Of a stretch of 64,000 nucleotides of DNA, positions 18,480 to 58,382 are shown one piece after another. Under the pieces are notes generated by a model. That model was not told the origin of the DNA, did not search any database, and saw only the letters and a program-made list of their open reading frames with translations. A program made the translations under genes and the position numbers. Numbering within the stretch: the first letter of the stretch is position 1; every line of letters begins with the position of its first letter. Source of the stretch: Gemmatimonadales bacterium (lineage in GTDB: Bacteria > Gemmatimonadota > Gemmatimonadetes > Gemmatimonadales > GWC2-71-9); the NCBI GenBank assembly GCA_037189525.1, contig JBBCJC010000001.1:192001-256000 (forward strand), written 5' to 3'.

Positions 18480-18554
18480 AGTTGACGAGGCGCAACAACA
18501 CCGAAGCCCACAATCGATGCAGCATAGCAACGATAATGTTGCACACGAGCATCG
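18480..18554. promoter_or_regulatory. Three palindromic enhancer-like sites (YGWTGC-N6-GCAWCR)
   Basis: AGTTGA-N6-GCAACA (18480), CGATGC-N6-GCAACG (18515), TGTTGC-N6-GCATCG (18537). Confidence 0.65.
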
Positions 18555-18820
18555 ACAATCCATAGATTGATGAATGCCTGAAACAGCTCCACAGGCTCCT
18601 GGCATCACGTTTTGGCTGCGGGAACCGTCGTCTCTTGCGAAAAGCGATGCTTGGACCCCACAGAATCAGCCCATTGGATCGTTGTAAGTCATTTTGGATT
18701 AATTATAGACCGGTTAGACTGGTCGATTTTCGTACTTCAAAGTGCCACAGGCCGCTCCGACCGCCCTCGGGAGGGCGGCGGGCTGAACCGGATACCTCAA
18801 AAGCGGATTGCGGCAAAACC

Positions 18821-18836
18821 CGGTATTGAGCTTGCA
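18821..18836 (+). promoter_or_regulatory. Putative sigma54 promoter for wzc
   Basis: CGGTATTGAGCTTGCA = GG-N10-GC with TTGCA. Confidence 0.7.
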
Positions 18837-18917
18837 ATGGAAGCCTGACTTGATCCCACCCGGCTTCGCACAACAGCGGACGGAGCGGGGGACGGCGGAC
18901 AACGAGGATAACTGGTG

Positions 18918-21344
18918 ATGACCAATCGGATTACAGGCGGATCGGACCCGGGCCGCGCCCTCCAGCCAGGTGTGAACTCGGCGTTGGGGTCGTACGACCC
19001 CAACATGGCGTACCCCGAACCGCCCGAGGACGACGAAGCCGAAGGCGGTCTCGATATCGGGCGGATGATCGCCGCGATTTTCCGCTACAAGTGGCTCGTC
19101 CTCGGTATCCTGGCGGTCGGCACGGCGGCGAGCCTCTTTGCCACCCGATTCATCAAGCCGACCTATTCGGCATCCGCCACCGTCTATGTCACCCAGGGCA
19201 GCCATACCGGCAGCGGCCCGATCCGGACCGACGGAATCATCCGTGACAACTCCTGGCCCCAGTTGGTCCGCAGCTTCGCGGTGATCGACCCGGTGGTCCG
19301 TGCATATCGGTTGTACCTCTGGCATCCGCCGACCGACAGCCTGCCGTTCCGCGGCTTCGACCTGGCAACGCGGTTCCAACCCGGCGATTACCGGCTCCAG
19401 ATCGATGCGACCGGACAACGCTACACGCTGCTGCGCGGCAAGAGTATTTCCGTCGAGAGCGGCGCCGTGGGCGATTCCATCGGCCGGACGGTCGGGTTCC
19501 AGTGGGCGCCACCCGCCGGGACATTCGCGCCGGGCATAGAGATTCCTTTCAGCGTCTCGGTACCACGCGACGTCTCGGCCGGCCTGGCAAGCTCGCTTCA
19601 GATCCGGGTTGCGCAGCAGAGCGCGCTGATGGTCATCGGGCTACAGGATTCCGACGCCGAGCGGGCTGCGCAAACCGTCAACGCCATCGTCGACCAGTTC
19701 CTCCTGGTCGCCGACGGGCTCAAACGGGATCAGTTGGCCAACGTCACGAAGGACCTCACCGAGCAGATCCGCATCGCGGATTCGTCGATGCGAACGGCGG
19801 AAACAGAACTGGAATCGTTCCGCGTCCGGACCATTACACAGCCGCGGATAGAGCAACAGGCGCCCGTCGCTGCCGGCCTGCAGCAGACCCAGCCGGTGGT
19901 GGCCAGTAACTTCATGGCCAAGCAGCTCGAACTGAGCAACCTCGAGAAAGACCGCATTGCGATCGAGCAGTTGGTCCGGCAGGGGCGCGAAACCGGCTCG
20001 GTGCCTGTCGATGCCTATCATACGATTCCGGCCATCCGCACCGCCCCGGATCTGGTGACCGTGCTGGGCGAAGTATCCCGGACCGAAGCCGAACTGCGTA
20101 GCTTACGCAATCGCTACACCGACGAATACGGCGGCATCAAGAAGCTGGTGGCCGACTTGGGCGAGCTGACCACCCGGACCGTGCCGCTCTACGCCGAGCG
20201 CCTGATCAGCCAGCTGCGCAGTCAGGAAACGACGCTCCGCGCCGAAATCGAGCGCGACGCCCGGGAAATGCGCGAGATTCCGATTCGAGCCCACACCGAG
20301 GACCGCCTGTCGCGTGACGCCCAGTCGGCCGTGGGGCTGCGCCAGAATCTCCAAAACCGGCTGCAGGAAGCACGGCTGGCGGAGTTGACCGCCACGCCGG
20401 ACGTCCGCATCCTCGATCGGGCCGAGGTGTCGAGCTATCCGTCGTCCAACACCGCTCCACGGATCGTGCTCTTCGGCGTGGCAGCGAGTCTGGGCCTGGC
20501 GCTCGCCCTCGCCATCCTACTCGATCGGATCGACAAACGGTTCCGCTATCCGGACCAGGTCTCCCAGGGACTGGGCCTCGCGATTCTCGGCGCGGTGCCG
20601 GTCATTCGCCGCAGCCGCGGGGCGGTCCTCTCCGATATGGAGACGGCGCCGATCGTGGAAGCCTTCCGCTCGATCCGCATGAACCTGGCACACTCGTATC
20701 GCGACGGCGAACCCATCACGCTGACCATCACCAGTCCGATGGCCGGCGACGGCAAGTCGCTCATCTCGTCGAATCTCGCCATGTCGTTCGCCGAGGCGGG
20801 GTATCAGACCGTCCTGATCGACGGCGACACGCGCCGGGGTGAACTGTATCGGGTCTTTGGCGGCGAACGCCGGCCCGGCCTGCTCGACCACCTCGACGGC
20901 GAGGCAACCCTCGAACAGATCTGCCGACAGACGGCGGCGCATCCGAAACTGACGCTGATTCCCTGTGGAACCCGCATTTCGCGTGGCCCCGAACTGCTCG
21001 GCTCGGCGGCAATGACCGACCTGGTCAACACGCTGCGCTCCCAGTACCAGGTCGTCCTGATCGACAGCCCGCCGCTCGGCGCCGGCATCGATCCATTCGT
21101 ATTGAGTACGGTCACCGGCAATGTGGTGATCGTCCTGCGCGCCGGCGAGACCGACCGCGAACTGGCCGAGGCGAAGATTCAGCTGATGGATCGACTGCCG
21201 ACGCGGGTTCTGGGCGCCGTGCTCAATCACATCGATATCGGCAAGGGCTCGTACAAGTACTACGCCTACGAATATCCGACACGAGGCGAGAGCGAAGACA
21301 CCCGGCCGGCGGCCGACAAGCCGATCGCGCTGCCGCGATCCTGA
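18918..21344 (+). CDS. wzc: Polysaccharide co-polymerase / tyrosine autokinase
   Basis: Two TM segments flanking a coiled-coil periplasmic region; Walker A GDGKS, A' LIDGD, B LIDSPP; Tyr cluster SYKYYAYEY. Confidence 0.95.
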   Translation: MTNRITGGSDPGRALQPGVNSALGSYDPNMAYPEPPEDDEAEGGLDIGRMIAAIFRYKWLVLGILAVGTAASLFATRFIKPTYSASATVYVTQGSHTGSGPIRTDGIIRDNSWPQLVRSFAVIDPVVRAYRLYLWHPPTDSLPFRGFDLATRFQPGDYRLQIDATGQRYTLLRGKSISVESGAVGDSIGRTVGFQWAPPAGTFAPGIEIPFSVSVPRDVSAGLASSLQIRVAQQSALMVIGLQDSDAERAAQTVNAIVDQFLLVADGLKRDQLANVTKDLTEQIRIADSSMRTAETELESFRVRTITQPRIEQQAPVAAGLQQTQPVVASNFMAKQLELSNLEKDRIAIEQLVRQGRETGSVPVDAYHTIPAIRTAPDLVTVLGEVSRTEAELRSLRNRYTDEYGGIKKLVADLGELTTRTVPLYAERLISQLRSQETTLRAEIERDAREMREIPIRAHTEDRLSRDAQSAVGLRQNLQNRLQEARLAELTATPDVRILDRAEVSSYPSSNTAPRIVLFGVAASLGLALALAILLDRIDKRFRYPDQVSQGLGLAILGAVPVIRRSRGAVLSDMETAPIVEAFRSIRMNLAHSYRDGEPITLTITSPMAGDGKSLISSNLAMSFAEAGYQTVLIDGDTRRGELYRVFGGERRPGLLDHLDGEATLEQICRQTAAHPKLTLIPCGTRISRGPELLGSAAMTDLVNTLRSQYQVVLIDSPPLGAGIDPFVLSTVTGNVVIVLRAGETDRELAEAKIQLMDRLPTRVLGAVLNHIDIGKGSYKYYAYEYPTRGESEDTRPAADKPIALPRS

Positions 21345-21345
21345 C

Positions 21346-21392
21346 GAAACAGCGCTCGGCGCGCAATACGCGCCGAGCGCTGTTTCACTTTT
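21346..21392. terminator. Intrinsic terminator hairpin between convergent genes
   Basis: Perfect 18-bp stem GAAACAGCGCTCGGCGCG / CGCGCCGAGCGCTGTTTC with a 5-nt loop, followed by ACTTTT. Confidence 0.85.
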
Positions 21393-21421
21393 CCGGTCTC
21401 ATTCCGCCCCGATGGCGGGAG

Positions 21422-22273
21422 TTACGAGGCCGATGCGAGCCCATCCCAATCGAAGCGGGTGTCCGCCCCGGACGCGGGTACGTCGGTCGCACAGAAGGTC
21501 AGATCGGGCCGACCCACGGCCTGGCCCAGCCCGGCGCGCGCCGCCAGTTCATTGACGCGATCGACGAGCTGCTGACCAAGCACCTCGCCCGCTCCCACGG
21601 CGACGACGGCAAACTGCAGTGGACCCAACCGGCCGATCGCGTCCGAGGACCGTCCGGTCCGGCGCAGTACCTCACCCAGTTGCCGGGCAAGGCCGTCGGC
21701 GGCGGGCGGCAGATGCTCGACCGGCTCGCGCGGCCGCAACAGGACCGCGCTGACCCGCTCCTTCCGGCGGGCGGCATCGGCGCAGAGTTCGCCGCTTCGC
21801 CGAATCAGGCCGCGCCGGTTGTAGAGTCCCGACGCCTCGTCGACCAGCCCCTCATCACGCGAGGCGTCCGAGGCCGTCTTGGCTTCGAGAAAGAGCTGCA
21901 GCTTGACGAGGAGCGCTTCGGGGTCGAGCGGATAGCCGAAAAACTCCCACGCGCCCGCGCGATAGGCCGCAAAGCGCTGCTGCCGACCTGACGGGCCGGC
22001 CGTGGTGATGAACACGGGCGTCGACCGGCTCCAGTCGGGCCAGGATCGGAGCGTCTGACACACGGTGAGGCCGTCGAAATCCGGCATTTGCATGTCGAGG
22101 ATCACCGCGTCAGGTTTGCTCGAAGCCGCCCGATCGAGGGCCTGCCGTCCGGTATACGCCCGGACGACACGATAGCCTTGACCGGCCAGGATGGATTCGA
22201 GAGACCGCGCGGCCCATTCCTGATCGTTGGCGACGAGAACGGTCAGCTGCGACATCGGGACATTCTCATCCAT
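21422..22273 (-). CDS. Response regulator with a degenerate GGDEF domain
   Basis: REC (VILDMQMPDFDG) followed by DEASGLYNRRG and GRLGPLQF in place of GGDEF. Confidence 0.85.
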   Translation of the reverse strand: MDENVPMSQLTVLVANDQEWAARSLESILAGQGYRVVRAYTGRQALDRAASSKPDAVILDMQMPDFDGLTVCQTLRSWPDWSRSTPVFITTAGPSGRQQRFAAYRAGAWEFFGYPLDPEALLVKLQLFLEAKTASDASRDEGLVDEASGLYNRRGLIRRSGELCADAARRKERVSAVLLRPREPVEHLPPAADGLARQLGEVLRRTGRSSDAIGRLGPLQFAVVAVGAGEVLGQQLVDRVNELAARAGLGQAVGRPDLTFCATDVPASGADTRFDWDGLASAS

Positions 22274-22656
22274 TGCTGACCAGGACCGAGTAGAAACTGG
22301 CAAAAAGTGTGGTTTGTGAGCGGTAGCACCGATGAATCCGTGCAACAGGTCCCTTTCGTGGCGTTCCCGTTGCCGAAGCGGGACTCCGCTCGACGGAAAT
22401 ATCGTATATCTTTGATTGACAACGATTTATCGTCATGAAACCTCAACCTGGCCCACACGAGACTGCCAAAGACGGAATCGATTTCATGCAAGGTTCTGGC
22501 CGATGCCGCATCTGCAACCGGTCCAGGACGCGAAATCGTGCAAGAAATTGCACTATTCACCCACTCACAGGGGGCATCGGGGACCGTGCCATTCTTAGCA
22601 CGAGTCCTGCGGTGGGAAGCAGAATGAGGCGATCCTGGAAAAGAAAGACGGCAATC

Positions 22657-23463: not shown

Positions 23464-24233
23464 TGGAATCAGCGCCAGGCACCTCCAGTATCGCGGTCAA
23501 CCCGCGGACTCGGCAGCCGCAGGCAGGTCGCCGAACCATTTCGGAGGAAGGCCGTCTTTCGCAGCAGGCAAAGATGGTGGCTCCCCCGCCCGAGGGCGCC
23601 CGGCGCTGGCTCAATGTGGCCGTGGCGATCGTGCTGCTGATCATTGCGATGCCCGTGATGATCATCATCGCCGTGCTCACCAAGTTGACGTCCAAGGGGC
23701 CGATCCTCTATCGGCAGACCCGGATCGGCATGGATCATCGGCTGCCCGGCGAGGTGCCGCTCCGGATCAGCCGGCAGCGCGTCTGCGACTTGGGCGGGCG
23801 GCCCTTCGTGATCTATAAGTTCCGGACCATGCGAGTCGACGCCGAAAGCGGTACAGGCGCGGTCTGGGCCAAAGAGAAGGATCCGCGGGTCACCTGGATC
23901 GGCGGCCTGCTCCGTCAGACCCGGCTCGACGAGCTGCCCCAGCTGTTCAACGTGCTCAAGGGCGACATGAACGTGGTCGGTCCGCGGCCGGAACGCCCCA
24001 GCATCTTCCTGCGCCTCGCCGATGAACTGGAAGACTATCAGCTGCGCCAGCGGGCGCGGCCGGGCATCACGGGGCTCGCACAAGTCAGTCAGCAGTACGA
24101 TCGCAACATGGACGACGTCGCGCGCAAGCTGCAGTTCGATCTCGAATATGTGCGCACCCAGAGCCTGCGCACCGACCTCGCCATCATGCTCAAGACCATT
24201 CCAGTGGTCCTGTTCCGTAAGGGCGGCTGGTGA
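23463..24233 (+). CDS. Priming phosphoglycosyltransferase (bacterial sugar transferase)
   Basis: YKFRTM, DPRVT, RLDELPQLFNVLKGDM.VVGPRPE and PGITGLAQV. Confidence 0.95.
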   Translation: MESAPGTSSIAVNPRTRQPQAGRRTISEEGRLSQQAKMVAPPPEGARRWLNVAVAIVLLIIAMPVMIIIAVLTKLTSKGPILYRQTRIGMDHRLPGEVPLRISRQRVCDLGGRPFVIYKFRTMRVDAESGTGAVWAKEKDPRVTWIGGLLRQTRLDELPQLFNVLKGDMNVVGPRPERPSIFLRLADELEDYQLRQRARPGITGLAQVSQQYDRNMDDVARKLQFDLEYVRTQSLRTDLAIMLKTIPVVLFRKGGW

Positions 24234-25114
24234 CGAGCGTCACCGCCCCGAGTGCAAGCCCGGGCTCCAGGTCTACCCTCTCCGGCAACTGGTTTCCCTA
24301 CGCTGTCGGCATCACCGCGTTTGCGGTGCTGTTCGCCGAGCCGTTTCAGCTCCTGCTGCGCGACTGGTGGAACGATCCGGAAGCGGGGCACGGACTGCTG
24401 CTCGGCCCGGTCGCGGTGTGGTTGGCCTGGCGGAGCCGTTCGGGCGTCGATCTGGCGCCGGCACGCGGGTTTGGCATCGCAATCCTGGTCGGCGCCGTCG
24501 CACTTCGATATCTGTCGAGCCTGGCCGCCGAGCTGTTCACGATGCGGATGTCGATGGTCTTTGCGCTTGCCGGGCTGGTCGTCTACTTCGGCGGCTGGGC
24601 ACGGCTCAAAGCCTGGTGGCTTCCGTTTACGTTGCTGGTCCTGTCGATTCCGTTGCCCGCGGTCCTGGTAGGCAGCATTGCGCTGCCGTTGCAATTCCAG
24701 GCCTCCCAAATCGGCGCGGCCCTGCTGGAGATGCGCTCGATCCCCGTCCGGCTCGACGGTAACCTGATCCTGTTGCCGGGGCACCGCCTGTTCGTGACCG
24801 AAGCCTGCAGCGGGTTGCGATCGCTGACGGCGCTGCTCAGCCTTGGCGTCCTGGCCGGCGGCCTGTGGCTCCGCTATCCGGTGTCGCGCGCGGCCCTCGT
24901 CATGAGCGCCATTCCGGTGGCCGTGCTGCTCAACGGTGTGCGGGTTTTCCTGACGGGATTCCTGGTCTTCATGGTCGACCCTGCGCTGGGTGAAGGCTTC
25001 ATGCACATGACCGAGGGCTGGGCCATGTTCGTGATCGCCTTCGGCATCCTGGGCGGCTTTGCCTGGGCCATCTCGTCGATCGAAGCGCGTTTTGCGCAGC
25101 GAGGGACGCGATGA
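24230..25114 (+). CDS. Exosortase (EpsH family transmembrane transpeptidase)
   Basis: Multi-TM protein with the Cys-Arg-His triad: VTEACSGLRS, LNGVRV, FMHMTEG; adjacent to EpsI. Confidence 0.95.
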   Translation: MTSVTAPSASPGSRSTLSGNWFPYAVGITAFAVLFAEPFQLLLRDWWNDPEAGHGLLLGPVAVWLAWRSRSGVDLAPARGFGIAILVGAVALRYLSSLAAELFTMRMSMVFALAGLVVYFGGWARLKAWWLPFTLLVLSIPLPAVLVGSIALPLQFQASQIGAALLEMRSIPVRLDGNLILLPGHRLFVTEACSGLRSLTALLSLGVLAGGLWLRYPVSRAALVMSAIPVAVLLNGVRVFLTGFLVFMVDPALGEGFMHMTEGWAMFVIAFGILGGFAWAISSIEARFAQRGTR

Positions 25115-25755
25115 CGATGACGGTACGCGCCGCCTGGATTCCGACAGCCATTCTGATCGTCGGGTGCCTGCTCAACGGATCGACCCGGATGCAGCGAACC
25201 ATGCCGCTGGTCGAACCGCTGACCGCCTTTCCCAACCGGATCGACGACTTCGAGGGCAGCGACATCACGATGACCGACGACGAAGTGCGCGTCGCCGGTG
25301 TCACGGACTATCTCTTCCGCCTCTATCGCGCGCCCGACCGGCCCGATTTCTCCGTCTACGTGGGCTACTACGCTAGCCAGGCGCGGGGCAAGACCATCCA
25401 TTCGCCGAAGAACTGCCTCCCCGGTGCCGGCTGGGAAGCGCTGGCATCGGAACCGATGGAGATCCCACACGCCGGCGGCGATCCCGTGCGCGTCAACCGG
25501 TTCATGGTGGCCAACAAAGATCAGAAGGCGCTGGTCTACTACTGGTATCAGGGGCGCGGCCGCACCGAGTCCAACGAGTACCGCGTCAAGCTCGATCTGA
25601 TGCTGGACGCCGCCGTGACGCGCCGGACGGAAGAAGCGCTGGTGCGCATCGTTCTGCCGCTCGACGGCCGGCTCGAGGAAGCGAACGCCGATGCTATGGC
25701 CGCCGATCTGATCCGCCGGATCAGCACCGAACTCAAGCGGAACCTCCCGGCGTAA
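25111..25755 (+). CDS. epsI: Exosortase-associated EpsI family protein
   Basis: VYVGYY.SQ, IHSPKNCLPGAGW, VYYWYQGRGR and ALVRI motifs. Confidence 0.93.
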   Translation: MTMTVRAAWIPTAILIVGCLLNGSTRMQRTMPLVEPLTAFPNRIDDFEGSDITMTDDEVRVAGVTDYLFRLYRAPDRPDFSVYVGYYASQARGKTIHSPKNCLPGAGWEALASEPMEIPHAGGDPVRVNRFMVANKDQKALVYYWYQGRGRTESNEYRVKLDLMLDAAVTRRTEEALVRIVLPLDGRLEEANADAMAADLIRRISTELKRNLPA

Positions 25756-26923: not shown

Positions 26924-26930
26924 GAGCGTC

Positions 26931-29607: not shown

Positions 29608-29623
29608 AGCAAACACGATGCCG
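29608..29623 (-). promoter_or_regulatory. Putative sigma54 promoter for the GT cluster 29574-25733
   Basis: Minus strand CGGCATCGTGTTTGCT; palindromic site TGCTGC-N6-GCAACA at 29649-29666 upstream. Confidence 0.7.
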
Positions 29624-29736: not shown

Positions 29737-30945
29737 TCAGGACCCGATGCGCACCAGCAGCCGCTCGAGTTCTGCCGCGCTGGCTTCCCACGAGCTGTTC
29801 GAAGCAACCAGCGCGCGCCCCGCATCACCCATCCGACGACGATCGGCCTCATCACGCAGCAGATGCACGACGTGGGTTGCCAGCTCCGCGCTGCGTTCCC
29901 CCAGCAGATAGTGCGTTCCCGCCTCCGCGCCCACGATGCCTTCGAAGGCAATCGGCGTCCCCACGACGGGACGTCCCATGGCCCAGGCCTCGAGCACCTT
30001 GTTCTTCACGCCGGCCCCCGAGCGGAGCGGGGCAACCACCACCTGCGCGCTCTCCAGATAGGGACGGACATCGGGCACCGAGCCGGTCACGGTAATGCCC
30101 GGGATCTCGCCTAACGCCTTGACTTCGTCGGTCGGGTGCCGCCCGACCACGACGAACCCGGCGTTTGCGACCTCGCGCCGAACCAGCGGCCAGACCTCGT
30201 GCGCAAACCAAACGGCGGCCTTGGCGTTGGGTTCGTAGCTCATGACCCCCGAGAAGACGACGGTCGGGATCCCGGCCTCGGCCAGGGCACGGCGATCGAA
30301 ATAGGAGAGGTCGACCCCATTTCCAATGACCGTCAGCTCGGGACCGCGACAAGTTCCGCCAAATGCCTCGGCGTCGTTACTCGAAATCAGAATGGCGTGA
30401 GCAATCCGAGACAGGACTTCACGCTCCAGCCGCCGAGTCATCCACCAGTCGGCAAGTCCGGTCCGCAAGGCGGGGCCCCGCTTCTCGCGCAAGGCGCGCC
30501 GACGAGCCAACGACGGCGCATCACAAATGTCGTAGGCGACGGGAATGCCGGCGAGCCCCTGCTCCACGTACGGCATCACCCGCCACCCGGTCGCCAGGAC
30601 ACGATCCCATCGACCGGCGCGAGCGCTCTCCTGGAGCGCGGCAAGCAAGCCGGAATCGTGCGCAGCAAGGTCCCAATAACGCTCGGGATCCCCTCGCAGC
30701 ACCTGATTGATCCGGTTGATGACGCCTGGCCTGGGAACAGGGGGCAGTTCGATCGGCGGGAAGGCCCTCACCTCAGAGAACAACTCGGCGAGCTGGGCCG
30801 CTTCTTCGGGCGAGGGATCAGACCCGATATACCAGAGCGACAGCTCGTGGCGTGCCGCGAGGGGAGCGAGGAGACCGACCTTCCGGAGTTCGTACCCCCC
30901 GATAATCGGAAACAACGGGTGTGCCGATATTACCAACAGCCGCAT
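29737..30945 (-). CDS. Glycosyltransferase family 4, of the type seen in exosortase loci
   Basis: NGVDLSYF, FSGVMSYEPN, GSVPDVRPYL, APLRSGAGVKNKVLEAWAMG. Confidence 0.92.
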   Translation of the reverse strand: MRLLVISAHPLFPIIGGYELRKVGLLAPLAARHELSLWYIGSDPSPEEAAQLAELFSEVRAFPPIELPPVPRPGVINRINQVLRGDPERYWDLAAHDSGLLAALQESARAGRWDRVLATGWRVMPYVEQGLAGIPVAYDICDAPSLARRRALREKRGPALRTGLADWWMTRRLEREVLSRIAHAILISSNDAEAFGGTCRGPELTVIGNGVDLSYFDRRALAEAGIPTVVFSGVMSYEPNAKAAVWFAHEVWPLVRREVANAGFVVVGRHPTDEVKALGEIPGITVTGSVPDVRPYLESAQVVVAPLRSGAGVKNKVLEAWAMGRPVVGTPIAFEGIVGAEAGTHYLLGERSAELATHVVHLLRDEADRRRMGDAGRALVASNSSWEASAAELERLLVRIGS

Positions 30946-31038: not shown

Positions 31039-31054
31039 TGCATTCCCGATACCA
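31039..31054 (-). promoter_or_regulatory. Putative sigma54 promoter for the GT4 gene starting at 30945
   Basis: Minus strand TGGTATCGGGAATGCA = GG-N10-GC. Confidence 0.65.
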
Positions 31055-31121: not shown

Positions 31122-31190
31122 CGATTCTTCAACGCAACATATGTTGCAATAATGCAACAATTACATTACACCTGTTGCGTCCTTGAATCG
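31122..31190. promoter_or_regulatory. Three enhancer-like palindromes between the divergent GT4 and NRPS genes
   Basis: CGATTC-N6-GCAACA (31122), TGTTGCAATAATGCAACA (31142), TGTTGC-N6-GAATCG (31173). Confidence 0.7.
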
Positions 31191-31297
31191 GTGAAGGTGC
31201 GGCATATCCCCAACTTTGCGCCCGATTCTTGCTTCTGCGCTATATCTGTTGCTGTCAAAACATGCGCGTGCTCGTACCACAGGCAAAGCTCGGAAAT

Positions 31298-47175: not shown

Positions 47176-47191
47176 TGGCACCCTCCTTGCA
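47176..47191 (+). promoter_or_regulatory. Near-consensus sigma54 promoter (distal)
   Basis: TGGCACCCTCCTTGCA. Confidence 0.75.
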
Positions 47192-47440: not shown

Positions 47441-49270
47441 ATGGCGAGCACGTATATCCTGGGTATTTCGGCCTACTACCACGACAGCGCGGCAGCGTTG
47501 CTCAAGGACGGCGAGATTCTCGCCGCCGGCAGCGAGGAACGGTTCACCCGGAAAAAGGGCGACTCGGCGTTCCCGTCTCGCGCGGTGGAGTACTGCCTCA
47601 AGGAGGCCGGGATCACCCTGAGCCAGGTCGACGCGGTCGGTTTTTACGACAAGCCGCTGCTCAAGTTCGAACGGATTCTCGAGACATACCTCGAGGTCGC
47701 CCCGAAGGGATTCGGGTCGTTCCTGAAGGCGGGACCGCTCTGGATCAAGGAAAAGCTCTTTACCGACCGCCAGCTGCGCGACTCGCTCGACGGCTGGCAG
47801 GGGGATCTGCTGTACGCCGAGCACCATGAATCGCACGCGGCCAGCGCATTCTATCCCTCGCCGTTCGAAGAGGCGGCAGTCCTGACCATGGATGGCGTCG
47901 GCGAGTGGGCCACGGCCTCGTGGGGTGTGGGCAAGGGCGCCGACCTGACGCTGACCCGTGAACTGCGCTGGCCCGACTCGCTCGGCCTGCTCTATTCGGC
48001 CTTTACCTACTACACCGGCTTCAAGGTCAACTCCGGTGAGTACAAGGTGATGGGCCTCGCTCCCTATGGCCAGCCCAAGTACGTCGACCAGATCTACAAG
48101 CACTTGATCGACCTGCGTGAAGACGGGTCGTTCACGATGAACCAGAAGTACTTCAACTACTTGAGCGGCCTCACTATGACGAGTGAGGCGTTCAATGAGG
48201 TGATGGGCGGCCCGCCACGGGTGCCGGAGTCCAATCTGACGCAGCGCGAGATGGACCTGGCACGGTCGATTCAGGTCGTCTGCGAAGAGATCATGCTGCG
48301 CATGGCACGGACGGCGCATAAAGAGACCGGCCTGGAGAACCTCTGCCTGGCTGGCGGTGTGGCGCTCAACTGCGTCGGGAACGGCCGGATTCTTCGTGAA
48401 GGCCCGTTCAAGCGGCTCTGGATTCAGCCGGCCGCGGGTGATGCGGGCGGCGCGCTCGGCGTGGCGCAGCTGATCTGGCACCGCCACAAGAAGCAGCCGC
48501 GCACGTTGCGCCCCGGCAAGGACGGAATGAAAGGCACCTATCTCGGCCCCTCGTTCACGCCGGACGAAATCGAAAAGGCGCTGTCGGCCGAGGGCGCGGT
48601 CTTCGAGCGGCTCGACCGGGACACGCTGCTCGACCGGACCGCCGCGGCGCTGGCCGAGGGCAAGATCATCGGGTGGTTCAACGGCCGGATGGAGTTCGGC
48701 CCCCGCTCGCTGGGCTGCCGCAGCATCCTGGGCGATCCTCGCAGCCCGAAGATGCAGGCGGACATGAACATCAAAATCAAGTTTCGCGAGGGCTTCCGCC
48801 CCTTCGCACCGAGCGTCCTGCAGGAGCGCGCCTCCGAGTATTTCGAACTCGAAGGCGAGTCGCCGTACATGCTGCTGGTGGCGCCCGTCAAAAAGGAACG
48901 TCAGATCCCGATGACGGCCGAGCAGCAGCAGCTCTGGGGCATCGACATGCTGAACGTGCCCCGCTCCGACCTGCCGGCCATTACGCACATCGACTACTCG
49001 GCGCGGATCCAGACCGTCAGCCCGGACACCAATCCGGACTATCATGCGTTGATCAAGGCGTTCGAGTCCAAGACGGGATGCGGCGTGCTGGTCAATACGT
49101 CGTTCAACGTGCGCGGCGAGCCGATCGTCTGCACGCCGTTCGACGCCTGGCGCTGTTTCATGCGGACCCACATCGATTGCCTGGTGGTCGGCCCGTATTT
49201 TCTCGAGAAGCCTCGCCAGGCGGAATGGAAGGAGGGAGACGCATGGAAGCAGGAGTTCCAGCTCGACTGA
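47441..49270 (+). CDS. O-carbamoyltransferase (NodU/CmcH/SxtI family)
   Basis: YYHDSAAAL, EERFTR.K, HHESHAAS, GEYKVMGLAPYG, EFGPRSLG.RSIL, FRPFAP and NTSFNVRGEP. Confidence 0.96.
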   Translation: MASTYILGISAYYHDSAAALLKDGEILAAGSEERFTRKKGDSAFPSRAVEYCLKEAGITLSQVDAVGFYDKPLLKFERILETYLEVAPKGFGSFLKAGPLWIKEKLFTDRQLRDSLDGWQGDLLYAEHHESHAASAFYPSPFEEAAVLTMDGVGEWATASWGVGKGADLTLTRELRWPDSLGLLYSAFTYYTGFKVNSGEYKVMGLAPYGQPKYVDQIYKHLIDLREDGSFTMNQKYFNYLSGLTMTSEAFNEVMGGPPRVPESNLTQREMDLARSIQVVCEEIMLRMARTAHKETGLENLCLAGGVALNCVGNGRILREGPFKRLWIQPAAGDAGGALGVAQLIWHRHKKQPRTLRPGKDGMKGTYLGPSFTPDEIEKALSAEGAVFERLDRDTLLDRTAAALAEGKIIGWFNGRMEFGPRSLGCRSILGDPRSPKMQADMNIKIKFREGFRPFAPSVLQERASEYFELEGESPYMLLVAPVKKERQIPMTAEQQQLWGIDMLNVPRSDLPAITHIDYSARIQTVSPDTNPDYHALIKAFESKTGCGVLVNTSFNVRGEPIVCTPFDAWRCFMRTHIDCLVVGPYFLEKPRQAEWKEGDAWKQEFQLD

Positions 49271-49650
49271 GTCCCGCGGAGGGCCGCAAGTTCGGCCTGC
49301 TGGTCGGAGGCGCGTTCCTGGCGCTGGGCGCGTTCTTCTGGTGGCGTCAGGCGCAGCGTCCGATGATGATCACGGGCGGCCTGGGCAGCGCGCTGGTGCT
49401 CGCCGGGCTCTTGATTCCGGGATACCTCGGACCGATCTACCGCGGCTGGATGAAGTTTGCGCTTCTCCTGTCCAAGGTGACGACGCCGATTTTCATGAGC
49501 ATCGTGTATTTCGTCGTGATCGCGCCGATCGGCTTGCTGATGCGCGCGTTCGGCCGGCGGCCGCTTCCCGTCCCCGCCCGCGGCAGCTCGGCGTGGTGGG
49601 CACGGCCGACCGATCCACCAAACGACGACGACATGTACCGGCAGTTCTGA
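49243..49650 (+). CDS. SxtJ-like two-TM membrane protein
   Basis: RKFGL, P..LGP.YRGWM, YFVVIAPIGLLMR, S.W, ending RQF; follows the carbamoyltransferase. Confidence 0.85.
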   Translation: MEAGVPARLSPAEGRKFGLLVGGAFLALGAFFWWRQAQRPMMITGGLGSALVLAGLLIPGYLGPIYRGWMKFALLLSKVTTPIFMSIVYFVVIAPIGLLMRAFGRRPLPVPARGSSAWWARPTDPPNDDDMYRQF

Positions 49651-49671
49651 ACACTCATTCGGGAGCAGGGC

Positions 49672-49830
49672 ATGGCCAAGGGATCGCTGGTCGGTGAGTT
49701 GTGGTCGTTCATGAAGGCGCGGCGCAAGTGGTGGCTGGCGCCGATCATCGTCATCATGTTGCTGGTCGGGATGTTGCTGGTGTTCGCCCAGGGCTCGGTC
49801 CTGGCGCCGTTCATCTACACCATCTTTTAG
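49672..49830 (+). CDS. 52-aa membrane peptide, SxtK/DUF5989-like (absent from the ORF track)
   Basis: Translated by hand: MAKGSLVGELWSFMKARRKWWLAPIIVIMLLVGMLLVFAQGSVLAPFIYTIF; GGAG RBS. Confidence 0.9.
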   Translation: MAKGSLVGELWSFMKARRKWWLAPIIVIMLLVGMLLVFAQGSVLAPFIYTIF

Positions 49831-49848: not shown

Positions 49849-50601
49849 ATGTCCCAGCGGACGATCATCGTCGTCCCGTGTTACAACGAGGCGGCCCGTC
49901 TGGATACGGCGGCCTTCCGCTCCTACGCTCACGACGCGGGGAATGGCACCACCTCGTTCCTGTTCGTCAACGACGGCAGCACCGACGATACGCTCGCGGT
50001 GCTGCAGCAGCTCGCGCGTGATCTGGGACCGGACCACGGCGTCCTCGATCTCCAGCCCAACGGTGGGAAGGCCGAAGCGGTGCGGCGCGGAGTGCTCCAC
50101 GCCATGGCCGCATCGCCCGGCGTCGTGGGGTTCTGGGATGCCGACCTGGCGACGCCGCTGGCCACCATCGGTAGCTTACAGAGTATCCTCGAGCAGCAGC
50201 CGAACATCGAGATGGTCTTCGGCGCCCGGGTCCAGTTACTCGGCCGCGCCATCCACCGGCACCACCGCCGCCACTATGCGGGGCGACTCTTTGCGACCAC
50301 GGTGTCGATCGTGCTCGACCTGCCGATCTACGACACCCAATGTGGCGCCAAGCTGTTTCGGGTAGGCCCCATGACGCCCGAGCTGTTTGCCGACCCCTTC
50401 CTGTCCCGCTGGGTCTTCGACGTCGAGATCATTGCGCGCCAGATGCGGGCGCATCGGCGGCACCGCGGTCGCGATGCCGCGCAGATCATCTTCGAATATC
50501 CGCTCGAGCGATGGACCGACGTTCCGGGCTCGAAGCTCTCCATGAGCGACTTCGTCCGGTCGATGTTCGACGTGCTGAAGATCTGGCATGCGTACCGATA
50601 A
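49849..50601 (+). CDS. Polyprenol-phosphate glycosyltransferase (GT2, DPM/DPG-synthase-like)
   Basis: VPCYNE, NDGSTD, GKAEAVR.G, DADLATP, DTQCGAKLF and W.FDVE. Confidence 0.92.
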   Translation: MSQRTIIVVPCYNEAARLDTAAFRSYAHDAGNGTTSFLFVNDGSTDDTLAVLQQLARDLGPDHGVLDLQPNGGKAEAVRRGVLHAMAASPGVVGFWDADLATPLATIGSLQSILEQQPNIEMVFGARVQLLGRAIHRHHRRHYAGRLFATTVSIVLDLPIYDTQCGAKLFRVGPMTPELFADPFLSRWVFDVEIIARQMRAHRRHRGRDAAQIIFEYPLERWTDVPGSKLSMSDFVRSMFDVLKIWHAYR

Positions 50602-53259: not shown

Positions 53260-54497
53260 CGACACCAGACGCGATCGTGAGCGTCCCCTCCGCCGATTCG
53301 GTTAGCGCACGCGCCGACGACAACACGGGACAACCGGCCGGACGGGCGCACACCGGACGGATCCGCTCGATCGACGGACTCCGTGGCGTGGCCGTTCTCA
53401 CGGTAATGCTGCTCCACTTCACGCTGATGCGCCCCTCCAATCTCTGGGAGGGCGGACTGGTCCAATTGCTGGACCTCGGCTGGATCGGGGTGGACCTCTT
53501 CTTCCTGGTGTCCGGTTTCCTGATTACAGGAATCCTCTGGGAGGCGCGCGGAACCGACGGCTACTTCTGGCGGTTTTATACCAGGCGGACGCTTCGGATC
53601 TTTCCGCTCTACTACGCGTTCCTCTTTGCGCTGCTGGTGGTCCTGCCACTCTTGCTGAGCCAGTACGAAGCCGAACACGCCACGAACGACCGGCGGATCT
53701 GGCTCTGGACCTACCTCAGCAACTTCCTGATGGCCCGCGACGGCTGGGAGGGGATGCCGTCGCATACCACGCATCTGTGGTCCCTGGCCGTCGAGGAGCA
53801 GTTCTACCTGATCTGGCCGCTGGTCGTGTTCCTGCTGAGCTACCGTGGTCTGGTGGGGACCTGCCTCGCGATTCTCGGCCTGTCTCCCCTGGTGCGCGCG
53901 GCGCTCGACCATGCACTCCCGAACGGCATCGCCGCCTACACGCTCCTGCCGGCCCGGCTCGACAGCCTGGCCCTTGGCGCTCTGCTTGCTCTGCTGGTCA
54001 GAACCGGGCCATCCACGATCGACCTGCGACGTGGCGGTGTCTGGTTGCTCGGGACGGGAACGGTCGGCCTGATCGGCTTGAGCGCCTTGGGTCGCCTTCA
54101 CGGATGGGGCGGGCTGCTGCCGCCCCTGCACTATGACGTGCAAGTCGTCGGCTATTCGCTGATTGCGGTGGCGTTCGGCGGCGTCCTGTTGCTCGCGCTC
54201 ACGGCGGCACCGGGCTCCCGACTCGATCGACTGCTGGCCACACCGTTCCTGCAAAGCCTGGGCAAATACAGCTATGCGCTGTACCTGTTCCACGTCCCGC
54301 TGCGCAACATCATCCGAGAGCGGGTGCGCGACGCGGGCGGGTTGCCACGCATCGGCGGCTCCGAACTGCCGGCCCAGATTCTCCTGTTCGTGGTGGCCAT
54401 CGGCATCACCTGGTGCCTGGCCGTCGTTAGCTGGCATCTCTTCGAAAAACACTGGCTCCGCCTCAAAGACCAGGTTCCCTACGGGAAAGCCGCATGA
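53256..54497 (+). CDS. Acyltransferase family 3 (OafA-like)
   Basis: DGLRGVA, GVDLFFLVSGFLIT, RRTLRIFPLYY, HLWSLAVEEQFY and SYALYLFH. Confidence 0.95.
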   Translation: MTTPDAIVSVPSADSVSARADDNTGQPAGRAHTGRIRSIDGLRGVAVLTVMLLHFTLMRPSNLWEGGLVQLLDLGWIGVDLFFLVSGFLITGILWEARGTDGYFWRFYTRRTLRIFPLYYAFLFALLVVLPLLLSQYEAEHATNDRRIWLWTYLSNFLMARDGWEGMPSHTTHLWSLAVEEQFYLIWPLVVFLLSYRGLVGTCLAILGLSPLVRAALDHALPNGIAAYTLLPARLDSLALGALLALLVRTGPSTIDLRRGGVWLLGTGTVGLIGLSALGRLHGWGGLLPPLHYDVQVVGYSLIAVAFGGVLLLALTAAPGSRLDRLLATPFLQSLGKYSYALYLFHVPLRNIIRERVRDAGGLPRIGGSELPAQILLFVVAIGITWCLAVVSWHLFEKHWLRLKDQVPYGKAA

Positions 54498-55984
54498 GTA
54501 CGCCTGCGCGGCCGACGAACCGGCTGGCGTTCAACACTCTGGTCTACGGCGCCGGCATCGTGATCAGTCGGGCGGCAGCATTCATCATGCTGCCCGTCTA
54601 TACCCGCATGCTCACGCCAGCCGACTACGGTCTGCTGCAGATCCTCGACATGACCGTCGAGGTGGCGATCATCCTGGTCAGTGCCGGCATCACGATCGGT
54701 GTCCTGCGCTTCTACTTCAAGGCCACGAGCGAAACCGAACGCAACCAGGTTCTGGCGAGCGCGCTGGTGTTTCAGACCATCCTGAATGCGGTCGGCTCCC
54801 TGCTCATCGTTGCGGCGGCCCGGCCGATCCACCTCCACGCCCTCGACGGCGCCGGTACGATCTCGATGGTCTACCTGGCGGCGGCCAATCTGACGGTCGG
54901 CCTGCTGATGACGGTGCCGCTGCTCAAAATGCAGGCGGAAGGCCGGTCGGGGCTCTACATGGCCGCGTCGGTCACCAAGCTCCTGATCCAGCTCACGCTC
55001 AACATCGTGTTCCTGGTGGGCCTCAAGACCGGACCCGTCGGTATTCTCTGGAGCACGTTCCTGAGCAACGCCGTGATCGGGTCGATTGCCGTGTGGTGGA
55101 TGCTGCGCAGTACCGGATTCGCGGTCGACCGATCGGCGATCCGGGATCTGCGACGCTTCGGGATTCCCTACCAGATCATGATCGCGGGAACGTTCCTCCT
55201 CGCGTTCGGTGATCGGTTCATTCTCCAATCGCTCAGCGGCCTCACCGCCGTGGGGATCTACTCGCTGGCCTATCAGTTCGGCTTCCTCCTGGTCAACCTC
55301 GGCGCGACACCCTTCTTCCGGGCCTGGAACCCGATCCGGTTCCAGATCGCGACCAACCCGCAAACCGAGCGGGATGCGACGTATGCCCGTGGATTTCGGC
55401 AACTCGACCTGATCCACGTCACGCTGGGCATCGGCATCGCGGTCTACGTCAAGCCGGTCCTCATGATCATGTCGGATCCGGCCTACCATGGAGCGGCCTC
55501 CCTGGCTCCGCTGATCCTGCTCGCCTATCAGTTTCAGACGTGGGCGGATGTGGTTCGCTTCGGGATCGACGTATCGGAGAGGACCAAGTACGCCTCGTAC
55601 GCCGTCTGGATCACCGTCTTCGTGGCACTCGGCCTCTACCTGGTGCTGATTCCCAGGTTCGGCGCGCTCGGCGCGGCTATGACCGCCGTGGTAGCCTTCT
55701 GGCTGCGTTTCCAGCTGACCTTCTTCTGGGCACAGCGGCTCTTCCCGATCCGATATGACTGGGGATTTCACGTGCGGCTCCTCGCGGGAGCCACGGCGCT
55801 GACGATCGGATACTTGCTGATCCCGGTTGACGGCCTGCTCCCGACGATCGGCCTCGCGACCGCGATCGTGGCGGCCTACTTCGCGGTGACGTGGTTCGGC
55901 GTGATGTACCCGGAGGATCGGCAGCAGGTCCTGACCATTGCACGAGGGCTGCCCGCCCGCTTCAAACGCACCCGCACGGCGTAG
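54494..55984 (+). CDS. wzx: Polysaccharide flippase (Wzx/MOP family)
   Basis: Many TM helices; LPVYTRML.PADYG, DRFIL, VGIYSLAY and LIPRFGALGAA. Confidence 0.88.
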   Translation: MSTPARPTNRLAFNTLVYGAGIVISRAAAFIMLPVYTRMLTPADYGLLQILDMTVEVAIILVSAGITIGVLRFYFKATSETERNQVLASALVFQTILNAVGSLLIVAAARPIHLHALDGAGTISMVYLAAANLTVGLLMTVPLLKMQAEGRSGLYMAASVTKLLIQLTLNIVFLVGLKTGPVGILWSTFLSNAVIGSIAVWWMLRSTGFAVDRSAIRDLRRFGIPYQIMIAGTFLLAFGDRFILQSLSGLTAVGIYSLAYQFGFLLVNLGATPFFRAWNPIRFQIATNPQTERDATYARGFRQLDLIHVTLGIGIAVYVKPVLMIMSDPAYHGAASLAPLILLAYQFQTWADVVRFGIDVSERTKYASYAVWITVFVALGLYLVLIPRFGALGAAMTAVVAFWLRFQLTFFWAQRLFPIRYDWGFHVRLLAGATALTIGYLLIPVDGLLPTIGLATAIVAAYFAVTWFGVMYPEDRQQVLTIARGLPARFKRTRTA

Positions 55985-55993
55985 TCCGCCGTT

Positions 55994-56890
55994 CTACGCA
56001 GCCAGCAACCCGGCCAGCCGCATCGCAAATCCGTCGATCGAGATACCGGCGGGCACATTCCAGCGGGGTAGATCGAACGGTCCGGCGGCGTTGGACATCC
56101 AACCGCCGTCGACCCGAAACGCCGCCTGATACCCGACCTGCCTGGCCACATCGCGGACGGTGTCATCGGCCAAGCCGTAGGGCCAGGAAATCCAGGGTTG
56201 CCAGGGCACGTTCTGCGCAGCGAGCCATGCCAGCGGACGGCGCAGCTCCTCCTGCAGGTCGTCGCCCCGGAGGCGCGTCAGGTTCGGATGCGACCATGTA
56301 TGACTCGCCAGCGTCACGTCGGTCGACGGCAGCTGTCGAGCAAGCGATTGCCACGAGCTCGACACCCGGGACCCCGACATGACCGTCCACGGCGCCCCGG
56401 CCTCGGCCGCCCAGGCGCCGACCTCGGCGCCCAGCCCGCGGCCCCGGGACAGCGCGGTCGCGCGGATGGCGTCCCAGTCCTCCCCGGCCCCCGCCAGCGC
56501 GTCCCACCAGAACGTCTCACCTTCGAGGAGGCCCGGCGCCACGAATACCGTCGACGGCAAACCCCGCTGCGTCAGCTCGGGCAACCCAAGCGAGACCGCG
56601 CCGTGATACGCGTCATCGAACGTAATGGCAACCCGAGGGCGGCGCGCCCGCTGCGGAGCCGGCGCCAGCAGCGCCGCCAGCGGCACGACATCGCAACTCC
56701 GCGTCAGCAGCTCGAGTTGGGCACGGAAGTCGTCGAGAGCAAGGTGGAGCGAGGCGTCGCCGCGGATCGGGTCGCCCGCGGGGACGATGTTGTGATACGC
56801 CAGCACCAGCGCATCGCGGCAACGGAAGCTGCGCAAGACCCGGAGGAGCCCCGAACCGTGCAGCGTCCGCTCGACCGCTCGCTTGATCAC
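55994..56890 (-). CDS. Polysaccharide deacetylase (CE4)
   Basis: VLAYH, ITFDDAY, SHTWSHP and SWPYG; GTGA overlap with the upstream gene. Confidence 0.92.
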   Translation of the reverse strand: MIKRAVERTLHGSGLLRVLRSFRCRDALVLAYHNIVPAGDPIRGDASLHLALDDFRAQLELLTRSCDVVPLAALLAPAPQRARRPRVAITFDDAYHGAVSLGLPELTQRGLPSTVFVAPGLLEGETFWWDALAGAGEDWDAIRATALSRGRGLGAEVGAWAAEAGAPWTVMSGSRVSSSWQSLARQLPSTDVTLASHTWSHPNLTRLRGDDLQEELRRPLAWLAAQNVPWQPWISWPYGLADDTVRDVARQVGYQAAFRVDGGWMSNAAGPFDLPRWNVPAGISIDGFAMRLAGLLAA

Positions 56891-58254
56891 GACTGGACGG
56901 CGACCGGACTCCGCGCCGGCGCCATGGACCGGGCCGCCAGGCGATCGCGCATGGCCACGACCTTGAGCGCCCCCAGCGAGAGACCAAAGGCAGTCCAGAT
57001 GAACGCGCCCCACGCGAGAGTCAGGAAGGATCCGGCCACAGCCAAGGCAATCAGGTGCAGAATCAGCGCATCGCACATTGCCGCTTCTTCGGGTCGGGGC
57101 GGCCTCGCTTTTCTGGCGCGCCCGGCCACCCGCTTGAGCATCACGATCGGCACCAGAAACGCCATGGCGAATGCCACCAGGCCCGGAACGCCCAATTCAG
57201 ACCCCATCTCGACCCAGATCGAGTGCGGCGCAGACCACCGCGTCCCCTGCCCCATCTCGTTGAGCTGCCGCACCGTCACGCTGTTGCCGTCCCGGAACGC
57301 GAAGTTGTTGATACCGACGCCGAAGACAGGGCTTTCGATCATGTATCCCATGCCGCGCGTCCACAGCGCCTTGCGGCCCGTCGTCTCCGTGGCGTTGTAG
57401 TCCTCGTTCAACGTCGTGATGGACCGCATCTGGGTCCAGTACCATTCCGACCCCGATGCCGCCACACCACCGATCACGATGCCAAGAAACGCCAGACGAT
57501 ACAGCAGCTTGGCGCCCTGAAAGAAGAAGATGACATAGAGGAGCACGGCGCCGAACGCGATGAAAGCACCGCGGGAACCGCTCAACACGAATGCCTGAAT
57601 CAGCGCAGCCGCCCCGCCGACACTCAACAACTTGACGATGATATTCCCGGTCGCAATGAAATACAGCGCAAACGGCACCGCGCCCACCATGAACATGGCA
57701 GCGTCGTTGGCGTCGTATGAGCCTTCACCCAGACCGCGAAAAGCGGAGGCATCCGAGGCCAGCAATGCGTAGATAACCGCGCCAACCAGGTATACCGCAG
57801 CCAGGCGCCGCAGATCGTGGAAGTCGCGGATCGCGAGCGCCAGGATGAAAAACAGAATGGCGGTCTTGTAGACATCGCCCATGAGGTACGAAATCGATGC
57901 GCCCGGGTAGACCCCGAACGGGGCGCTCAAGGTCGCCCAGACCAGCAGGAACGCCGCCACCTTACCGTAAGGCAGTTTGAGGCGCTGCCAGGCGCGGGCG
58001 CCTCGCGGATTCATCACCCACACCGCCACACTGGCCAGCGCCGCGAGCGTGATCGGCCGGAGGGCGGTCATCCCGGGCACGAGATGGTGAACCCGGGCCA
58101 CCGCCGTGAGGATGAAGGCACAGGCGCAAATCATCAGAAAATCGAGCGATTTGCGCTTCTCGACAGGCGGCACCGGCCCCCCGGAACCCCGGCGGACAGG
58201 CCTTGGCTGACCAACCGACGTGTGCTGCGGCAACGCAACAGCCGTTGCGCTCAT
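56887..58254 (-). CDS. O-antigen ligase / Wzy-like polymerase
   Basis: Multi-TM; DANDAA, SGSRGAF, GRKALW, PVFGVG..NF and APHSIW.E..SELG..G. Confidence 0.9.
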   Translation of the reverse strand: MSATAVALPQHTSVGQPRPVRRGSGGPVPPVEKRKSLDFLMICACAFILTAVARVHHLVPGMTALRPITLAALASVAVWVMNPRGARAWQRLKLPYGKVAAFLLVWATLSAPFGVYPGASISYLMGDVYKTAILFFILALAIRDFHDLRRLAAVYLVGAVIYALLASDASAFRGLGEGSYDANDAAMFMVGAVPFALYFIATGNIIVKLLSVGGAAALIQAFVLSGSRGAFIAFGAVLLYVIFFFQGAKLLYRLAFLGIVIGGVAASGSEWYWTQMRSITTLNEDYNATETTGRKALWTRGMGYMIESPVFGVGINNFAFRDGNSVTVRQLNEMGQGTRWSAPHSIWVEMGSELGVPGLVAFAMAFLVPIVMLKRVAGRARKARPPRPEEAAMCDALILHLIALAVAGSFLTLAWGAFIWTAFGLSLGALKVVAMRDRLAARSMAPARSPVAVQS

Positions 58255-58382
58255 TTGCATCGACCTACCATAACTGTTGCGTACGCGCATCGTCAGCCAT
58301 ACCGTTACGAGGACATGGGCCTAGTCCCAAACTTGCACCGGGAGGATCCCAAACGGGACCGCCCCCAGACAACCGGACCAGG

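Follow-up and report, generated by a model that had tools for sequence, protein, structure and literature searches.

The operon heads of an exopolysaccharide and exosortase gene cluster in a Gemmatimonadales bacterium (GenBank assembly GCA_037189525.1) are marked by an 18-bp palindrome, TGTTGC-N6-GCAACA, and a sigma54 activator encoded within the cluster is predicted from sequence to bind it, a reading to which we assign a probability of about 0.8. The window, i.e. the whole stretch of DNA analysed, comprises 64,000 nucleotides (contig JBBCJC010000001.1, positions 192,001 to 256,000; C1:192001-256000 in our numbering) of a 4.65-Mb genome that is 98% complete; the cluster occupies it from 14.7 kb onward. 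Gene boundaries come from an in-house codon-model caller, and gene starts are therefore only approximate. An original prediction had proposed twelve copies of a palindrome, YGWTGC-N6-GCAWCR, as the binding site of this regulator, uniting nonribosomal peptide synthetase (NRPS)–polyketide synthase (PKS), glycosyltransferase, carbamoyl and wzy operons in one programme.

The palindrome is a real, conserved motif. An 18-mer matching the pattern is present at all twelve proposed positions; four copies are perfect (18515, 18537, 31142 and 58275), five carry one mismatch (22330, 29649, 31122, 31173 and 58223) and three carry two (18480, 47252 and 47282). A fifth perfect copy, absent from the prediction, lies at 63978, additional copies occur at 18405, 18568, 29616 and 47221, and the consensus is better given as TGTnGC(g/a)-N4-(c/t)GCnACA. 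Neighbouring copies stand 20-35 bp apart as claimed, except for 58223 and 58275 (52 bp). Allowing at most one mismatch, the window contains 20 matches compared with 4.08±1.94 in 100 shuffles, none of which reaches 20. The intergenic DNA of the locus (4668 bp) holds five perfect copies and 12 with at most one mismatch, where the remaining intergenic DNA of the genome leads to expectations of 0.02 and 0.26; twelve other spacer lengths (0-12) yield 0-1 and 0-3 copies, respectively. The six copies with at most one mismatch in coding DNA of the locus are close to background, and the enrichment over shuffled and coding sequence on which the prediction hinged was thus borne out. Genome-wide, eight of the 17 perfect matches are intergenic: gaps of the locus hold five of these, and the far end of the cluster one more.

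Related genomes yield the same motif de novo. Within the 600 bp preceding the activator gene in 72 of 80 related loci (eight were too short), half-sites with at most one mismatch occur 30 times at a spacer of 6 and 0-11 times at other spacers. Unseeded palindromic expectation maximization on 65 dereplicated upstream regions returned TGtnGc-N6-gCnaCA as the best motif, with a width of 18 fitting best, and the same procedure on 38 more divergent homologues (53-69% identity), drawn from 40 loci that we picked out of the listed homologue loci, returned TGTnGCg-N4-cGCnACA. A scoring matrix trained on the 65-region set, from which this genome was excluded, assigns ranks 1-6 among the 1817 gaps of the genome to those at 30916, 78114 (past the window), 47158, 18203, 29455 and 58174, while the single-site gaps at 22274 and 63473 rank 113 and 161. 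Spacer-altered control matrices place no more than two locus gaps among their top six; with 20 column shuffles it is never more than one. The palindrome search and genome-wide scan that had been suggested as checks therefore both came out in favour of the motif.

Could the matches reflect chance, or be by-products of sigma54 -12 elements (TTGC) and A+T-richer intergenic DNA? TTGC does lie within the half-site, TG ahead of a sigma54 promoter is enough for the score of a weak site, and the three two-mismatch sites are individually weak by pattern. Shuffles, spacer specificity, gap ranking, positional conservation in diverged gaps, the two de novo recoveries and the site–promoter geometry described below, from which sites coinciding with a promoter were left out, nevertheless rule this out for the motif as a whole, leaving it a probability of practically nil. 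Single weak sites at 18405, 18645 and 47252 may be chance.

The predicted binder and its neighbouring kinase are encoded as follows:

16838-18370, reverse strand: NtrC/Fis-family sigma54 activator (REC-AAA+-HTH_8) that likely binds the motif, with GAFTGA intact and DRTTLYR as recognition helix

15774-16841, reverse strand: histidine kinase (HisKA and HATPase) with no membrane-span-like hydrophobic segment (maximum 19-residue hydropathy 1.48)

The activator has the REC domain, the sigma54-type AAA+ domain with GAFTGA and the Fis-type HTH of an NtrC-family enhancer-binding protein, and rpoN is present in the genome; its matches to solved structures are generic Fis-type HTHs only. The kinase gene lies directly downstream of the activator gene in 70 of 71 related loci and likely encodes the cognate kinase, while wzc is divergent from the activator gene in 33/50 loci. 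Homologues come almost exclusively from Gemmatimonadales or Gemmatimonadota records. Of 61 relatives, 43 encode the activator, the identities falling into two groups clearly separated between 58% and ~45%, and phylum-wide it turns up in 117 of 201 genomes (a tally that includes the unpublished G189). Its recognition helix is nearly invariant among homologues. Sites of at least 10 bits occur upstream of 32/38 divergent homologues with a [DE]RTTxYR helix (3-13 in spacer controls), and upstream of none of the three with a DRKTIHR helix. Strict perfect palindromes, counted by hand, number 50 in the 43 activator-positive genomes and six in the 18 others. The palindrome thus behaves as an NtrC-type operator with this activator as the best candidate binder, in line with the original prediction, the binding itself being predicted.

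Sites and promoters in the window are arranged as listed below; motif sites are given without strand, and the sigma54 matrix used to score promoters was built from the rest of this genome, with the locus excluded.

18405-18422: weak motif site, one mismatch, 8.9 bits, over the activator's predicted start site

18429-18444, reverse strand: sigma54-type -24/-12 element of the activator gene, 10.1 bits, kept in 5/5 aligned genomes

18480-18497: motif site, two mismatches, 10.0 bits, about -70 from the activator's predicted start

18515-18554: tandem sites 18515 and 18537, 22 bp apart, both perfect

18568-18585: newly noted motif site, 12.3 bits, also in the related genome G021

18821-18836, forward strand: sigma54-type promoter of wzc, 11.9 bits, with counterparts before wzc in G021, G006, G007 and G024

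22330-22347: motif site between the REC gene and wza, 12.3 bits, kept in 4/4 aligned genomes

22487-22502, reverse strand: conserved sigma54-type promoter of the REC/degenerate-GGDEF gene, site 22330 being at about +137 from its predicted start

29608-29623, reverse strand: sigma54-type promoter of the operon from ~29.5 kb (GT2, GT4, GT2), 14.8 bits

29649-29666: strong motif site, 18.3 bits, about -60 from the predicted start of the 29.5-kb operon

31039-31054, reverse strand: sigma54-type promoter of the GT4 gene (29737-30945), 10.8 bits

31122-31190: triple of sites at 31122, 31142 and 31173 in the divergent GT4/NRPS gap, 12.1, 20.6 and 11.6 bits, rank 1/1817

31217-31235, forward strand: putative non-canonical -24/-12 element of NRPS-PKS, a 19-bp block that G021 shares without a change although the DNA around it has diverged

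47176-47191, forward strand: consensus sigma54 promoter of the carbamoyltransferase operon, 13.5 bits

47221-47299: sites 47221, 47252 (weak) and 47282, 11.3, 7.5 and 15.8 bits, at +27 to +88 from the predicted start of the 47176 promoter

58223-58292: sites 58223 and 58275 between wzy and the EpsU-like GT2 gene, 16.6 and 12.0 bits

63699-63714, reverse strand: sigma54-type promoter of the Ig-repeat gene (59984-63472), 10.2 bits, identical 16-mer in G021

63978-63995: perfect motif site, 9.3-12.9 bits, about -300 from the predicted start of the Ig-repeat promoter

The canonical layout, sites upstream of a promoter, is seen at five heads (the regulator, wzc, the 29.5-kb glycosyltransferase operon, the 30.9-kb glycosyltransferase and the Ig-repeat gene), and tandem sites upstream of a -24/-12 element are clear at five heads and atypical or absent at six (REC, wza, NRPS, carbamoyl, wzy and the EpsU-like GT2). 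Relative to the starts of the activator and of wzc, the 18515/18537 pair lies at about -105/-127 and -323/-301, respectively, a position kept in four of five aligned genomes and shifted in L031; in G021, a site is found at a similar distance from the Ig-repeat promoter. The claim that the noted sites mostly precede a -24/-12 element holds for seven of the twelve (18480, 18515, 18537, 29649, 31122, 31142 and 31173). It does not hold for 47252 and 47282, downstream of the best promoter at 47176, nor for 22330, which lies downstream of the conserved 22502 promoter and upstream only of a candidate at 22359 (11.7 bits) that was dropped because it is not conserved in three relatives. Around sites 58223 and 58275, no -24/-12 element is convincing on either strand (the best candidates reach 4-6 bits, forward strand); with the sigma54 matrix wzy yields no promoter candidate, and the 4-6 bits of the EpsU-like GT2 candidate are near a level that 13% of shuffles reach. 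At the NRPS-PKS head, which gives no hit with the sigma54 matrix, CG replaces GG in the 31217-31235 block, TTGCT is intact and the site triple sits at -114, -94 and -63, so that the block is a plausible, conserved but non-canonical promoter. The proposed single programme is accordingly supported only in part: the layout is regular at the glycosyltransferase heads, but NRPS-PKS has a non-canonical promoter, the carbamoyl module has its sites downstream, and for wzy no promoter was found.

Enhancer-like geometry is seen on a larger scale in 507 dereplicated gaps from related clusters, in which sites were called at 13 bits or more and 94 intermediate gaps were excluded; these gaps include the regions used to train the motif, so that site calls there are non-independent and promoter calls are independent. 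A sigma54 promoter is present in 53 of 88 site-bearing gaps compared with 66 of 325 site-less gaps, and in 7-15 of the 88 after shuffling, which is the better control because site-bearing gaps are longer. Sites lie at -180 to -60 in 56/83 site–promoter pairs and downstream of the promoter in 11/83, and the spacing of neighbouring sites peaks at 19-23, 33-34, 41-45 and 63-67 bp. Candidate IHF sites between enhancer and promoter, scored with a consensus sequence, occur in 25/88 against 14-25 in shuffles, and in 15/55 against 5-15.

The proposed mechanism follows textbook sigma54 logic, and in that respect the surprise is moderate. The apparently soluble adjoining kinase would probably phosphorylate the activator, whose dimers would then bind tandem sites about 21 bp apart on one helix face and oligomerise, thereby opening sigma54 promoters that usually lie 60-180 bp downstream of the sites. 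Besides the Wzc, Wza and glycosyltransferase operons, the targets switched on in this manner would include the gene of the activator itself, PEP-CTERM surface proteins that are sorted by the exosortase and encoded elsewhere in the genome, and probably the NRPS-PKS operon. We infer activation, rather than repression, at each site.

FleQ is known as both activator and repressor, and the present activator might similarly bind the motif but often act as a repressor or roadblock, in which case the sites would not form one positive programme. The carbamoyl sites at +27 to +88 and the REC site at +137, all past their promoters, the site over the activator's own start and the 11 downstream pairs among 83 are in keeping with such a role; in G021, the carbamoyl operon shows the canonical site-before-promoter order. 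A pattern search of the activator's own promoter in 104 homologues adds to this picture: 27 have a sigma70-type promoter (TTGAC-17-TA), 12 a sigma54 promoter, one both, and 66 are unclassified. In the sigma70 cases, the -35 and -10 elements each fall within a motif-like 18-mer, the two being 21 bp apart, and the four positions not fixed by the search pattern read G, C, C and A in 21, 24, 24 and 22 of 27. In the activator tree (FastTree, SH-like support only), the 14-row clade containing this genome has eight sigma54 and no sigma70 promoters, whereas its 33-row sister clade (support 88) has 24 sigma70 promoters with motif-like sites over -35 and -10. This one clade contrast suggests positive feedback in the clade of this genome and self-repression in the sister clade; in this genome, site 18405 over the activator start could possibly serve auto-repression. 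Most pairs nonetheless have upstream enhancer geometry, downstream activator sites at 40-70 bp have been described in Desulfovibrio (PMC4641369), and repression could hold at some promoters without displacing an activator that mainly works as an enhancer-binding protein. As a general account, a repressor role is very unlikely.

The sites also extend to the cargo of the exosortase. The relevant genes of the cluster are:

24230-25755, forward strand: exosortase and EpsI genes (TIGR02602 146.6 bits, cutoff 105.55; TIGR02914 111.3, cutoff 42.8), within the putative regulon

This is the only exosortase detected in the genome, which encodes one PEP-CTERM gene, on C3. The gap upstream of that gene contains a site of 16.7 bits, followed by a weak partner at a distance of 21 bp, and ranks 7 of 1734 gaps shorter than 1 kb, next after the six locus gaps (10/1817 when long gaps are included). 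For relatives, 69 PEP-CTERM regions were collected (30 from a search and 39 chosen by us) and 55 were kept, 23 of them from G057; 12 were excluded for want of a recognisable signal-peptide start and others as unparsed or too short. Sites of at least 12 bits precede 16 of the 55, compared with 0-6 for other spacers, a mean of 0.76 (maximum 4) in 200 column shuffles and 1.1% of 1694 background heads in this genome, and a sigma54 promoter of at least 9 bits is found in 20/55. The expected matches upstream of PEP-CTERM genes thus appeared both here and among relatives. The exosortase itself is present in 30 of 61 genomes, 29 of which are activator-positive; the only one among the 18 activator-less genomes is G014 (84% complete). 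A regulon spread over the whole genome did not materialize, as five site-plus-promoter pairs off the locus among 2095 heads fall within the 1-11 seen in 30 column shuffles. One such gap (C2:807282-808105), before a large type I PKS cluster, combines one perfect and two weaker sites with a 16.7-bit sigma54 promoter; not exceeding the genome-wide null, it is a regulon candidate only.

Several observations weigh against the activator as binder and director of a single programme. The related genomes are non-independent samples, and the three DRKTIHR negatives form one clade and therefore provide only one contrast. In this genome, the sites at the carbamoyl and REC heads come after the promoters instead of before them, and neither wzy nor the PEP-CTERM gene has a recognisable -24/-12. 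Upstream regions of 39/55 PEP-CTERM genes fall below 12 bits, so most of these genes are without a strong site, and no exosortase was found in 14 of the 43 activator-positive genomes, so the link to sorting is not obligatory. G005 retains sites, adjoining a contig end. Finally, G016 (97% complete) has three perfect sites at polysaccharide operon heads, and neither the activator nor an exosortase was found in it.

The survival of perfect sites in G016, together with the roughly ten other sigma54-activator-like proteins encoded in the genome studied here, would fit a genuine operator bound by an unlinked regulator common to Gemmatimonadales, with the activator gene as a mere target. The G016 cluster (C6:51876-68371), with its three perfect orphan sites and no activator, wzc or exosortase block, carries at its edge a wecB gene cut to 196 aa, as a deletion of activator, wzc and exosortase would leave; the truncation suggests such a deletion of the activator block, and an unlinked binder predicts the same picture. 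Sites moreover accompany the activator gene across families, paralogous copies included, and track its recognition helix, and the excess of strict palindromes in activator-positive genomes points the same way. An unlinked binder is thus unlikely.

A second NtrC-family activator (C1:271595-272971, 15 kb past the window) has to be considered as well, given that the gap before its own operon ranks 2 of 1817 and that it is present in 46/61 genomes (E<=1e-150), G016 and G005 included. Of 42 loci compared, 15 were uninformative; where ancestral housekeeping neighbours lie upstream of the second activator's operon head, sites of at least 10 bits occur in 0/18 gaps, but where a divergent gene of the polysaccharide cluster lies there, they occur in 8/9. 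The sites follow the cluster, not the second activator, which also has a different recognition helix (DRANLYR), and its candidacy as binder is disfavoured to the point of being extremely unlikely. Among further candidates, the REC protein at 21422-22273 was rejected, as no DNA-binding domain was found in it and its C-terminus is a degenerate GGDEF.

The predicted operation of the cluster-encoded activator resembles that of PrsK/PrsR/PrsT, in which an NtrC-like activator lies near exopolysaccharide and exosortase genes and a palindrome and a sigma54 -24/-12 precede PEP-CTERM genes in genomes with an exosortase (PMC1569441). Of the genomes studied at the time, only those of Proteobacteria were reported to have the PrsR box, which is 17 nt long and ends in TTTACA (Haft et al. 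2006, PMC1569441), whereas the site described here is 18 nt long and ends in GCAACA; TTTACA or TGTAAA occurs in only 3/55 PEP-CTERM upstream regions. In 14 pairs before PEP-CTERM genes, the site lies at -94 to -277 from the start, farther away than the PrsR spacer of 63±11 nt (PMC1569441) would place it. The activator scores 377 bits on TIGR02915 (PrsR; cutoff 502.6, genuine PrsR control 585), no protein exceeds that cutoff in 61 relatives (up to 22 candidates scored per genome), and PrsK (TIGR02916) and PrsT (TIGR02917) remain below cutoff in this genome (best 102/300 and 101.6/312.2 bits); PrsK is transmembrane, unlike the soluble-looking kinase. Membership in the PrsR system is rejected: with activator, PrsK and PrsT profiles all failing and a different site, the system is PrsR-like in its working but is not PrsR. 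It likely does the job of PrsR with a different activator, kinase and DNA site.

Other regulators share parts of this design. DVU3305 of D. vulgaris recognises sites including, among the matches listed, TGTTGC-N5-GCAACA (Kazakov et al. 2015, PMC4641369), with identical half-sites, tandem copies and a sigma54 response regulator, but with a 5-bp spacer (17 bp overall), a general-stress regulon and a different listed recognition helix (PMC4641369); the N5 form is absent from the intergenic DNA of the locus. GlrR/QseF of Enterobacteriaceae binds TGTC-N10-GACA at three sites that precede a sigma54 promoter by more than 100 bp (Goepel et al. 2011, PMC3045617) and shares the 18-bp TGT-N12-ACA frame and a use of sigma54 or sigma70 that differs by lineage. 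GlrR is the top named match (40.9%) among the plasmid records listed, yet at about 40% identity it falls outside the clade of the activator, it targets small RNAs rather than polysaccharide genes (PMC3045617), and the activator fails the GlrR profile NF011695 (348.8 bits, cutoff 763). DVUA0057 of D. vulgaris, with control of PEP-CTERM and exopolysaccharide genes supported by DNA affinity purification-chip (Rajeev et al. 2011, PMC3333781; PMC4641369), likewise places both gene sets under one sigma54 activator; its sites are 17 bp long and of the TGTCGG-N5-TTTACA type, and it had no validated motif as of 2011 (PMC3333781). The label DVUA0057 for L256:13688-15118, the pDV PrsR gene in our tree, is an assumption; in supplement 2 of PMC4641369, the C-terminal residues of this gene product agree with the row for DVU0110 and not with that for DVUA0057.

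Soils and sediments commonly harbour Gemmatimonadota. In literature searches, no transcription-factor site was found described for the phylum, and no report of the 18-bp motif or its regulator was found, although descriptions given only as logos or in subscription journals could escape a text search; the available parts of PMC3162934 and PMC9850573 contain nothing on the motif. The proposed activator–operator pair offers a direct test of slime and surface-protein control in Gemmatimonadota, ties NRPS-PKS, presumptively, to the control of exopolysaccharide, and would allow the limits of clusters and dispersed PEP-CTERM cargo to be recognised from sequence alone. It would also fill a gap from 2006, when a PEP-CTERM box had been found only in Proteobacteria (PMC1569441). 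Taken further, this could be a slime switch of the Gemmatimonadota's own, separate from PrsR in activator family, soluble kinase and 18-bp operator, controlling exopolysaccharide synthesis, an NRPS-PKS tailoring module and exosortase cargo in much of the class, with the sign of feedback flipped between clades, a composite proposal that we hold tentatively, at somewhat less than even odds.

The cluster begins with wecB, the kinase, the activator, wzc, the REC protein, wza, a priming transferase, the exosortase and EpsI, and continues with glycosyltransferases, NRPS, PKS, two exosortase-associated hydrolases, a carbamoyltransferase module, wzx, a deacetylase, wzy and the Ig-repeat gene. The cluster and the putative regulon continue for about 14 kb past the window, a part that holds XrtA-type deacetylase and FemAB genes (both above cutoff) and leads to a TonB-like receptor and a second kinase/activator pair. 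The REC protein with its degenerate GGDEF-like C-terminus (21422-22273), found in 32 of 35 long related loci, is possibly a phosphate sink or a c-di-GMP-type input to the system. The carbamoyltransferase at 47441-49830 is followed by SxtJ-family (PF19588) and DUF5989 genes, an arrangement also present in G021. The second pair (C1:270114-272971, 14-17 kb past the window) closes the cluster and is found in most relatives; the two activators lie 40-115 kb apart in many genomes, and relatives without a cluster have housekeeping genes beside the second activator, which suggests a preferred insertion point.

Two further observations concern palindromes. TGCA-N6-TGCA, at 22537-22554, precedes wza in 3/4 genomes and also some PEP-CTERM genes; its enrichment is weak (12 copies against 0-6 at other spacers), it overlaps sigma54 -12 elements, and it may be another regulator's site or an echo of the -12 element. 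A near-identical perfect palindrome occurs once per genome in ten genomes of the same genus, three of them activator-less (G005:C2:31595, G014:C139, G015:C1, G006:C5, G007:C7, G021:C37, G011:C58, G017:C92, G004:C595 and G008:C418); no close match to it was found in the genome studied here, and it may be coding sequence. Upstream of the cluster, the window encodes a baeRF3 protein that resembles a ribosome hibernation factor family, below the family cutoff (13531-14670), and an imuA-imuB-dnaE2 mutagenesis cassette (5123-10295).

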